The notes under the pieces were generated by a model. That model did no database searches. It saw only the letters and a program-made list of their open reading frames with translations, and was not told the origin of the DNA. From Escherichia coli (GTDB taxonomy: Bacteria > Pseudomonadota > Gammaproteobacteria > Enterobacterales > Enterobacteriaceae), in assembly GCF_003334255.1 (NCBI RefSeq), contig NZ_QOWU01000009.1: a DNA stretch of 64,000 nucleotides; one strand, 5' to 3'. The translations under genes were made by a program, and so were the position numbers. Of this stretch, positions 51,114 through 52,244 are shown piece by piece (position 1 is the stretch's first letter; every line of letters starts with the position of its first letter).

Positions 51114-51962
51114 CTATACTGAAGAAGATACTTTTCCCGCATAATGTTTCGCAATAATATCATTTAGCCGATCAACCAGTTCTGGTTTCCTGAACGTGAT
51201 GTGTGCGGAGCCCTTCTTAAAGTATCTGATGTTGAACATCTCATCTTCATAGCACACTTTGCCCTGAACGGAGCGGATGTGATCATCCAGCCGAATGATG
51301 ATATTTTCCCGGCTGTCGGGGATCGGTTTGCCGCTGAACAGGTGTAGCATTCTTTCCAGGTCGGCGAGTCGATCTGCCTGTTGCCCGGTGATAAGATGCA
51401 ATCCCCATCTGTCCCACCTCACCAGGTTGTTGACGATAATTTTACTGCCAAATTTACAGGGGGAATTGGTTTTGTAATTCCAGTTCAGCCCTCTGAAGAC
51501 GTTGATCACCCCTCGCTCAAACACTTCATCTTTGTTCTGGTGCAGTTGTTCAAATGTGCTCAGAATGTTCGCTTCACTGATTTCCGGAAAATTATCGTAC
51601 TCCAGTGAGCTGTACCATGTATCACGGGCCTGCACATCCATTAATGACAGCATCCCGGAACGTTGCATCAGGTCACGCCAGATTTCGCGGTCAAGATTGC
51701 GGGTGATGGCTTTCATTGCGGTTTCCGGTTTCTCCATGAGCCAGCAGCCACAGCGAAAATCCTGTTTCATGGCCCAGTCCAGAGCAGTTTTACCTCCAAT
51801 ACTTTCTGTCAATACCGAGATTTCAGCCAGTTGCCGGATAAGTGTGTCGATTTGCAGCAGTGTAGTCTTTCGCACAGCCAGAATGTGACTGACTGAGGTG
51901 GAGCAGATAACGTCCGTATGCCCGTTGACCACTTCCGGACGGGAGACTGTGATTGCAGACAT
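51114..51962 (-). CDS. Hypothetical protein, 282 aa, family not recognised; last gene of the island before the ulaE junction
   Basis: Long ORF with coding-like composition, co-directional with the island genes, ending about 200 bp from the junction. Confidence 0.5.
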   Translation of the reverse strand: MSAITVSRPEVVNGHTDVICSTSVSHILAVRKTTLLQIDTLIRQLAEISVLTESIGGKTALDWAMKQDFRCGCWLMEKPETAMKAITRNLDREIWRDLMQRSGMLSLMDVQARDTWYSSLEYDNFPEISEANILSTFEQLHQNKDEVFERGVINVFRGLNWNYKTNSPCKFGSKIIVNNLVRWDRWGLHLITGQQADRLADLERMLHLFSGKPIPDSRENIIIRLDDHIRSVQGKVCYEDEMFNIRYFKKGSAHITFRKPELVDRLNDIIAKHYAGKVSSSV

Positions 51963-52046
51963 AATCGATATTCCTTTTCGCAGATAAATGAAAACGCCAG
52001 CCCTGTTCAGGCTGGCGTCAGTGGAATGAAGTATGGTGAGTGAGAC

Positions 52047-52244
52047 TCACCGGTTTTGTTGCAGAAACTGCAGTTGGCGCAGGATACGGATATCTTCCCT
52101 GGCCTGTTCAATACAGGGCAACAGTGCTGCCGAATCCGTTTTATCCTCATCGTTGTCGAAGATAATCCCTGATTCGCAGTCAATATTGTCCTGCAGCCAC
52201 GCAATCAGAATATCCAGCGCCGTTTCTGTGGTTAATAATTTCAT
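52047..52244 (-). CDS. Small acidic hypothetical protein, 65 aa
   Basis: ORF MKLLTTETALDILIAWLQDNIDCESGIIFDNDEDKTDS..., 19 bp downstream of the YeeW-like gene on the same strand; small acidic proteins occupy this position in CP4-type elements. Confidence 0.4.
   Translation of the reverse strand: MKLLTTETALDILIAWLQDNIDCESGIIFDNDEDKTDSAALLPCIEQAREDIRILRQLQFLQQNR

Follow-up and report, generated by a model that had tools for sequence, protein, structure and literature searches.

Two adjacent open reading frames (ORFs) of 282 and 65 amino acids, both on the minus strand, lie at the edge of a CP4-type genomic island in a 64,000-nucleotide stretch of Escherichia coli DNA (contig NZ_QOWU01000009.1, assembly GCF_003334255.1; hereafter the window). 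A megablast search of 5,426 complete E. coli genomes, the reference collection for all E. coli counts below, showed that positions 50800-52800 are 100% identical to a locus in strain TB06053. RefSeq names the two coding sequences there WP_032198269.1, ‘DUF4942 domain-containing protein’ (282 amino acids), and WP_000772027.1, ‘DUF957 domain-containing protein’ (65 amino acids), in agreement with the ORF listing of the window. Both ORFs are genuine genes, not chance reading frames. An original prediction, made from the sequence alone, had called them unrecognised. As to function that description stands, in that neither protein has an NCBIfam or PADLOC match (the two proteins and eight neighbours were searched) or a solved-structure match, but both belong to named DUF families. 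These families are already known, catalogued under several historical names and uncharacterised; our literature searches, including those on ydiA, yeeW and radC islands, returned catalogue mentions of the two genes and nothing functional.

Two genes of a conserved island backbone

In TB06053 the RefSeq order runs ulaD, a 67-amino-acid hypothetical protein, DUF4942, DUF957, DUF5983, cbtA, a YeeU-family antitoxin, a hypothetical protein, DUF987, JAB/RadC, an antirestriction gene and DUF932. The neighbour that had been described as yeeW-like is the DUF5983 gene; its start overlaps cbtA by 4 bp and its end lies 19 bp from the start of DUF957. The original prediction took the two genes to be variable cargo distal to the toxin-antitoxin pair, a view that their distribution contradicts. 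DUF4942 DNA is present in 3,940 of the 5,426 genomes, at 7,342 places with a median of two copies and at most nine per genome, and DUF957 DNA in 4,056, at 8,591 places and again with a median of two copies. Each gene is thus carried by about 73-75% of complete E. coli genomes, and each has a fixed position in the array. DUF957 and DUF4942 are conserved island backbone, not variable cargo.

Gene order beyond E. coli points the same way. A pattern scan built on a 13-sequence alignment, taking one genome per species, yielded 80 related loci, 54-95% identical, in some 30 genera of Enterobacterales. Gene order was read by tblastn with ten window proteins, and co-occurrence was counted in the 67 loci having at least 2.5 kb upstream. 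Order and strand proved invariant: DUF932, ArdB, RadC, DUF987, CbeA, CbtA, then optionally DUF5983 and DUF957, then DUF4942 and the attachment (att) site. Upstream of DUF4942 we found CbtA in 59 loci, RadC in 53, CbeA in 51, DUF5983 in 33 and DUF957 in 21; DUF4942 occurs without DUF957 in 46, without CbtA in 8, and alone, with neither CbtA nor CbeA, in 5. Past DUF4942, on the opposite strand, 12 loci have a tRNA gene (Asp, Met, Arg, Ser or Thr) at a distance of 106-250 bp and a thirteenth has one at 453 bp, which makes DUF4942 the last gene before the attachment site.

DUF957, by comparison, is optional, and its distribution is nested within that of DUF5983, which accompanies it in 20 of its 21 loci; it is not a partner of DUF4942. 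A dedicated pair, as originally proposed, is therefore contradicted by the co-occurrence counts, by plasmids that carry each gene separately and by a hairpin that lies between the two.

Loci of other kinds surfaced in the same survey. A lone intact DUF4942 gene with its hairpin stands beside tRNA-Asp in Salmonella enterica subsp. arizonae (locus L008; similarly L007, L009, L057 and L073), and such lone loci are flanked by type VI secretion genes in place of the CbtA module; here the terminal gene has outlasted replacement of the backbone. The 214-amino-acid ORF between DUF987 and the antitoxin gene occurs in a minority of the related loci only, which makes it a truly variable insertion in the array. 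Some enterobacterial modules carry non-enterobacterial labels, namely ‘Chryseobacterium sp. 18061’ (L028, L049) and a ‘Collinsella sp.’ metagenome-assembled genome (L063). In the tblastn results, L049 and a Citrobacter sp. 18056 contig (L048) disagree in just one gene, by one percentage point, and L063 shares 95% identity with the E. coli protein; such contigs look like products of contamination or mis-binning.

Table 1 Features of the island end in the window.
Feature	Position	Strand	Basis
67-aa ORF, RefSeq ‘hypothetical protein’	50852-51055	+	ulaE stub read into island DNA
att core CTCCCCGCCGGGGA, 14 bp	50895..50908	.	repeated at far island end
Tandem ATAGCCCCCAA repeats, candidate arm-type integrase sites	50967..50989	+	repeat search
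DUF4942 gene, 282 aa	51114..51962	-	ORF, Pfam PF13708, RefSeq, AlphaFold2 model
Terminator-like GC-rich hairpin between DUF957 and DUF4942 genes	51993..52019	-	hairpin scan, RNA fold
DUF957 gene, 65 aa, L0009/Aec78	52047..52244	-	ORF, RefSeq, 372 relatives
DUF5983 gene, 162 aa, YeeW-like	52264..52752	-	ORF, RefSeq, phrog_5003
cbtA, YeeV-family type IV toxin	52749..53126	-	RefSeq annotation of identical sequence
cbeA/yeeU-family antitoxin	53216..53584	-	RefSeq annotation
214-aa ORF between DUF987 and antitoxin gene	53634-54278	-	phrog_5162 (unknown function)
RadC/JAB-domain gene, YeeS-like, in co-directional backbone array	54581..55057	-	NCBIfam TIGR00608, E 1e-43
ArdB/KlcA-type antirestriction gene of backbone	55072..55551	-	phrog_10132 ‘anti-restriction protein’, E 9e-63; RefSeq ‘antirestriction protein’
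DUF932 gene, YafZ/YubP-like, upstream end of conserved array considered	55890..56708	-	RefSeq, phrog_12094, tblastn in related loci
Terminator-like hairpin, 13-bp stem, 8 GC pairs, T-rich tail	56758-56787	-	178-bp gap between DUF905 and DUF932 genes

The DUF4942 and DUF957 proteins and their expression

Pfam PF13708 (DUF4942) matches residues 87-275 of the 282-amino-acid protein over model positions 1-189 of 190 (E 6e-68, score 228.7). Its relatives number 2,433 at 90%-identity clusters and 2,143 at 50%-identity clusters. Among the 150 listed representatives of the 2,143 clusters, the dominant architecture is a stand-alone form of ~255-295 amino acids, consisting of an N-terminal helical extension of ~80 residues and the DUF4942 domain; the window protein conforms to it, and most of the 150 align with it from about residue 15 to 278. 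Two distant metagenomic representatives are encoded on contigs of 1-2 kb that offer no useful context. Four residues are invariant (W95, D201, H254 and N267) and six nearly so (S21 and R31 in the N-terminal part, D91, G151, P168 and R204).

An AlphaFold2 model built on a 102-sequence alignment (predicted local distance difference test, pLDDT, 88.7; predicted template-modelling score 0.82) shows residues 1-17 disordered, a helical first half (helices across 24-159) and an alpha/beta second half (strands across 174-257). As the original prediction held, there is no transmembrane helix: Kyte-Doolittle means over 19 residues peak at 1.12, and in the 65-amino-acid protein at 0.82. Against the Protein Data Bank (PDB), Foldseek gave no solved structural relative (best E 0.28), and sequence and profile searches came back empty. 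Matches to a common characterised enzyme, which the original prediction had named as refuting evidence, did not appear in these profile and structure searches.

Rare DUF4942 relatives of ~465 amino acids, comprising the complete stand-alone architecture followed by a C-terminal core of ~190 residues, connect the family with methyltransferases. The fused core carries FPTP, VLEPSAGxG and NPPF motifs and matches Pfam MTS. The profile phrog_6263, ‘DNA methyltransferase’, aligns to DUF4942 residues 83-279, and most of the 43 phage matches are annotated methyltransferases. In these relatives, which come from plasmids, phages and metagenomes, the architecture makes up the one non-catalytic part of a minimal NPPF amino-methyltransferase; this suggests that DUF4942 supplies recognition of the substrate, probably DNA, in the fused enzymes, a role for which it is the obvious candidate. 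In the alignment, the window protein stops before the FPTP, EPSAGxG and NPPF core; its sequence holds neither the S-adenosylmethionine-binding motif I nor motif IV ([NDS]PP[FYW]), and Pfam finds DUF4942 alone. We rejected the idea that DUF4942 is a methyltransferase, as the older annotation ‘restriction methylase’ would have it, there being no catalytic motifs. Assignment of the fused core to DNA or to RNA methylation was likewise dropped, its matches being weak and to small RNA methyltransferases.

The 65-amino-acid protein has 372 relatives among 90%-identity clusters and is 75-98% identical to those named DUF957. Pfam-A gave no match at E <= 10, apparently because the library used lacks a DUF957 model, which leaves the name unaffected but means that it rests on the RefSeq products of identical proteins; the relatives carry no precomputed Pfam domain either. 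Across 24 distinct intact copies from other Enterobacterales, compared by the Nei-Gojobori method, median pN was 0.22 and pS 0.68, and the median dN/dS of 0.165 identifies DUF957 as a protein-coding gene under purifying selection. Conservation of this ORF, whose absence the original prediction had named as refuting evidence, is thus borne out, as is its acidity (isoelectric point 4.16, net charge -7.5, 13 Asp and Glu in 65 residues). The AlphaFold2 model (pLDDT 85) has a helix at 6-22, the acidic loop CESGIIFDNDEDKTD and a second helix at 38-64; the DNDED of the loop is conserved. Sequence and profile searches found no PDB relative, and the sole PDB match, EXO84, was set aside as low-complexity chance similarity.

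Predicted in-frame fusion ORFs of 103-121 amino acids join the N-terminal ~50 residues of DUF5983 to the DUF957 domain in Hafnia alvei (L012, L081) and Serratia sp. DD3 (L015-L018, L033, L034), with linkers that differ between the genera. Such fusions could be a Rosetta-stone link between the two proteins and, alongside the nested distribution, make it likely that DUF957 is functionally tied to DUF5983, not to DUF4942.

A hairpin separates the two genes. Read in the direction of transcription (52019-51993), it has an 11-bp stem with 7 GC pairs and a U-rich tail, lies 30 nt before the DUF4942 start codon, and folds as RNA with a z-score of -3.2. An RNAalifold consensus on a MAFFT alignment of DUF4942 upstream regions gave no more than 4 pairs owing to misalignment, and was replaced by an anchored hairpin search. 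This search recovered an equivalent hairpin with a T-rich tail in 57 of 69 distinct Enterobacterales upstream regions, compared with 6 of 1,380 shuffles. The conserved hairpins comprise 20 different stem cores with paired substitutions (at one position, A-U 43, U-A 8 and C-G 3), and they occur whatever gene lies upstream, be it DUF957, DUF5983, CbtA, CbeA or an unrelated one. No Rfam family was found in 50700-53400, where one microRNA match is due to chance. The most plausible reading of the element is that of an intrinsic terminator or attenuator insulating DUF4942. Given the 4-bp overlap and the 19-bp gap, DUF957 is most likely co-transcribed with cbeA, cbtA and DUF5983; DUF4942, set apart from that toxin-antitoxin operon by the conserved hairpin, is probably expressed only by read-through.

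The ulaE junction and the plasmid counterparts

The ula operon, in which a minus-strand ulaG is followed by ulaA-D, extends to 50842. The ulaE reading frame starts at 50852 and is broken after 18 codons, and similarity to the native ulaD-ulaE of other genomes ends at about 50907-50908, which confirms the ulaE junction named in the original prediction. The 14-bp core CTCCCCGCCGGGGA lies inside ulaE codons 15-18, at the boundary between island and chromosome. In TB06053 a second copy lies 93 kb away (L003, ~24607-24620), beside the remainder of ulaE and a tyrosine integrase gene, so that the island spans ~93 kb from the ulaE stub to the integrase gene adjoining the rest of ulaE. Its cargo there includes hlyCABD, iha, Ag43 and two-partner-secretion genes. 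Only 64 of the 5,426 genomes have this junction.

Several further features mark the junction. The target of the island is the 5' end of a protein-coding gene, ulaE, not a tRNA gene. The use of L-ascorbate is probably impaired, because ulaE and ulaF are cut off from the ula promoter. The annotated 67-amino-acid ‘hypothetical protein’ is an artefact made of ulaE codons 1-18, the att core and AT-rich island DNA. Between the att core and DUF4942 is an AT-rich tail of 205-206 bp that holds the tandem ATAGCCCCCAA repeats; the integrase-side end of the island has the near-identical pair GTAGCCCCCAG / GTAGCCCCCAA, followed by CATGGAGG and CTGTTGAAAT. The same motifs thus occur in the same order at both ends (50967-51035; L003 24650-24780), as tandem (A/G)TAGCCCCCA(A/G), then CATGGAGG, then CTGTTGAAAT, and could plausibly bind the integrase as arm-type sites. 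On the minus strand, three weak promoter-like sites (51003-50926) face outward over the att core and would, after excision, point toward the integrase gene.

Conjugative plasmids carry the same families. By tblastn, DUF4942 is found on 4,355 of 72,556 PLSDB plasmids, 3,986 of which are conjugative. The window protein shares 34-38% identity with YdiA of IncI, IncK and IncL plasmids over about 95% of its length, and Foldseek aligns its model to AlphaFold models named YdiA with TM-scores of 0.79-0.88 at probability 1.00. On an IncK2/Z plasmid, DUF4942 is the last gene before mobA, the relaxase gene and the origin of transfer (oriT), co-oriented with ardA, psiA and psiB. On pOXA-48 it belongs to a co-directional array with JAB/RadC-like and DGQHR genes, Hha, DUF1380, an antirestriction gene and ssb. 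DUF957-domain proteins are found on 1,414 plasmids, mostly of IncHI2 type, amid small-gene arrays without DUF4942 or DUF5983, and DUF5983 on 223 plasmids.

The table of families enriched in plasmid leading regions in Samuel et al. 2024 (PMC11541004) lists DUF4942/YdiA as family 24, with 2,171 members, a false-discovery-rate p of 0, a median position of 1 from oriT and T-strand orientation, and again as family 76. DUF5983 appears in it as family 72 at median position 2. All three families bear the label ‘Uncharacterized’, and DUF905, DUF932-like (YafZ/YubP) and KlcA families are also among those ranked at the top (PMC11541004). As the same families recur in this table and in the plasmid arrays, the island backbone is homologous to plasmid leading regions, family by family and in orientation. 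DUF4942 ends the co-directional array of the island as it does on plasmids, but the neighbouring site recognised there is an integrase att core. Upstream of DUF4942/ydiA on the IncK2/Z plasmid pSH271-2 we also noted a GC-rich non-coding region of ~450 nt (L088, 8490-8960) predicted to form a long single-stranded DNA hairpin (z -7.2), a candidate compatible with a single-strand promoter of the Frpo/ssi type.

Readings of the module and known systems

The reading that we favour, if tentatively and with slightly less than even confidence, is that DUF957 and DUF4942 close the backbone of a CP4-type island that is the counterpart of a conjugative leading region, with DUF4942 acting as an establishment or anti-restriction factor. 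A ~93-kb island would have entered the 5' end of ulaE through its tyrosine integrase, and its backbone of DUF932, ArdB/KlcA, RadC, DUF987, CbeA, CbtA, DUF5983, DUF957 and DUF4942 would be a chromosomal relic or counterpart of the plasmid leading region. Plasmid DUF4942 (YdiA), typically nearest oriT, would be the first gene into the recipient, where it may recognise nucleic acid in its establishment or anti-restriction role. The island protein, having no methyltransferase domain, would bind its target and leave it unmodified. The conserved hairpin would isolate DUF4942 from the upstream toxin-antitoxin operon and leave its expression to read-through, and DUF957 would be a separate accessory protein, a small acidic helical hairpin linked to DUF5983.

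A number of observations weigh against this view. Enrichment in leading regions is correlative. The DUF4942 protein is near neutral (isoelectric point 7.7), which is atypical for a DNA-binding protein, and the fused core, whose weak matches are to small RNA methyltransferases, cannot be tied to DNA. IncHI2 plasmids carry DUF957 without DUF5983, weakening the idea of a partnership. The promoter whose presence upstream of 52244 the original prediction had raised did not appear: the promoter scan gave no sigma-70-like promoter upstream of 52244 or of 51962. No relaxase was seen in the window, as judged from the RefSeq annotation of the identical locus. The MOBP nick consensus YATCCTGY is absent from the 205-bp tail, and its single matches elsewhere in the island part of the window fall inside coding genes. 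The island copy may no longer serve transfer. We regard as unlikely a bolder version, in which the island end is still a functional leading region: after excision, transfer or mobilisation would start from a cryptic origin close to the att-proximal tail, DUF4942 would enter first and shield or mark the DNA, and the hairpin, DUF957 and DUF5983 would form an early-expression programme. Were that version true, DUF4942 would be a new kind of anti-restriction or establishment protein, a recognition module derived from a methyltransferase and yet non-methylating.

Four other explanations are each less consistent with the distribution data than the leading-region counterpart. The one that survives best, although it too is improbable, makes DUF5983, DUF957 and DUF4942 additional members of the CbtA/CbeA type IV toxin-antitoxin system that modulate toxin or antitoxin and play no part in transfer or defence. 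Its appeal lies in position: the genes are co-directional with cbeA-cbtA and directly downstream of it, closely packed at the 4-bp overlap and 19-bp gap, and CbtA precedes DUF4942 in 59 of 67 loci. DUF4942 nevertheless occurs without CbtA or CbeA on thousands of plasmids and in 5 of the 67 chromosomal loci, DUF957 is present in only 21 of these and travels on IncHI2 plasmids without the toxin-antitoxin pair, and the terminator-like hairpin sets DUF4942 apart from the operon. Moreover, the K-12 CbtA/CbeA pairs (YeeV/YeeU, YkfI/YafW and YpjF/YfjZ) work without these genes.

DUF4942 might instead assist integration or excision, as an att-binding or directionality protein, and owe its constant place beside the attachment site to that task; we consider this quite unlikely. 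It would account for a gene that is constantly last, 106-250 bp from the tRNA or att core (206 bp here), that persists beside tRNA-Asp after the rest of the module is lost, and that after excision would, from the coordinates, be co-directional with the integrase gene and ~385 bp upstream of it. It sits poorly with the abundance of the family on plasmids by oriT, where the two contexts examined have no adjacent integrase or att site, and with a fusion partner that is a methyltransferase, not a recombinase. The size and predicted fold of DUF4942 are also unlike those of the known small winged-helix excisionases and recombination directionality factors (Xis/RDF).

The original prediction's own view, a dedicated variable cargo pair in which the acidic 65-amino-acid protein is a DNA mimic or antitoxin partner of the 282-amino-acid protein, now seems very unlikely. 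The charge and conserved DNDED loop of the small protein agree with it, as do the nearly equal copy numbers of the two genes in E. coli. The genes are, however, too widespread in E. coli to be variable. Nor are they obligately paired, since 46 of the 67 DUF4942 loci have no DUF957 and either gene occurs on plasmids that do not have the other; the terminator-like hairpin falls between the two, and neither Pfam nor PDB searches related the small protein to ArdA, Ocr or any other known mimic. Weakest, and highly improbable, is the notion that DUF4942 is what is left of a restriction or orphan methyltransferase, inert and decaying, and DUF957 a hitch-hiking ORF. In its favour are database entries that call relatives ‘restriction methylase’ or ‘Restriction endonuclease subunit M’, the methyltransferase domain of the longer relatives and the frameshifted copies in several loci (L075, L078, L081). 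Against it, the stand-alone form dominates the listed clusters, its four invariant residues and confidently predicted fold are retained, DUF4942 is strongly enriched at a specific plasmid position and orientation, and DUF957 is under purifying selection.

The locus itself adds nothing new: identical genes are annotated in thousands of genomes, and catalogues of pathogenicity islands have included them from LEE and SRL onward. At the same time, few uncharacterised genes are as abundant as DUF4942/YdiA on conjugative resistance plasmids (IncI, IncK and IncL, for example pOXA-48), and learning what it does could uncover a new mechanism of establishment or anti-defence bearing on the spread of resistance. 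The chromosomal copies supply many diverged sequences, and with them the handles of the conserved hairpin, the methyltransferase fusions and the DUF5983-DUF957 fusions.

Among the closest known systems are islands at the tRNA loci pheV, pheU, selC or serX, whose genes are essentially the same (protein identity 75-96%) and follow yeeU, yeeV and yeeW in the same order; the sole difference is the integration site, which here is ulaE. DUF957 resembles the DNA mimics ArdA and Ocr in being small, strongly acidic and part of a module with a bona fide antirestriction gene, but sequence and profile comparisons (Pfam, PHROG, PDB) reveal no similarity, so that the likeness is one of resemblance only. The DUF4942-methyltransferase fusions of phages and other elements (phrog_6263, for example from Aeromonas, Pseudomonas and Vibrio phages; P0317, P0355) share the DUF4942 domain with the window protein and, in the ~465-amino-acid forms, the N-terminal helical extension as well; the methyltransferase core is theirs alone, and the window protein, with neither motif I nor NPPF, cannot methylate. 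Plasmid YdiA of IncI1, IncK and IncL (families 24 and 76) belongs to the same Pfam family, has the same full-length architecture and is likewise the last gene of a co-directional array with antirestriction and RadC/JAB genes. YdiA adjoins oriT, whereas the island DUF4942 is chromosomal and adjoins an integrase att site; upstream, the island gene has a short terminator-like hairpin where the IncK2/Z plasmid copy has a long single-stranded DNA hairpin region.

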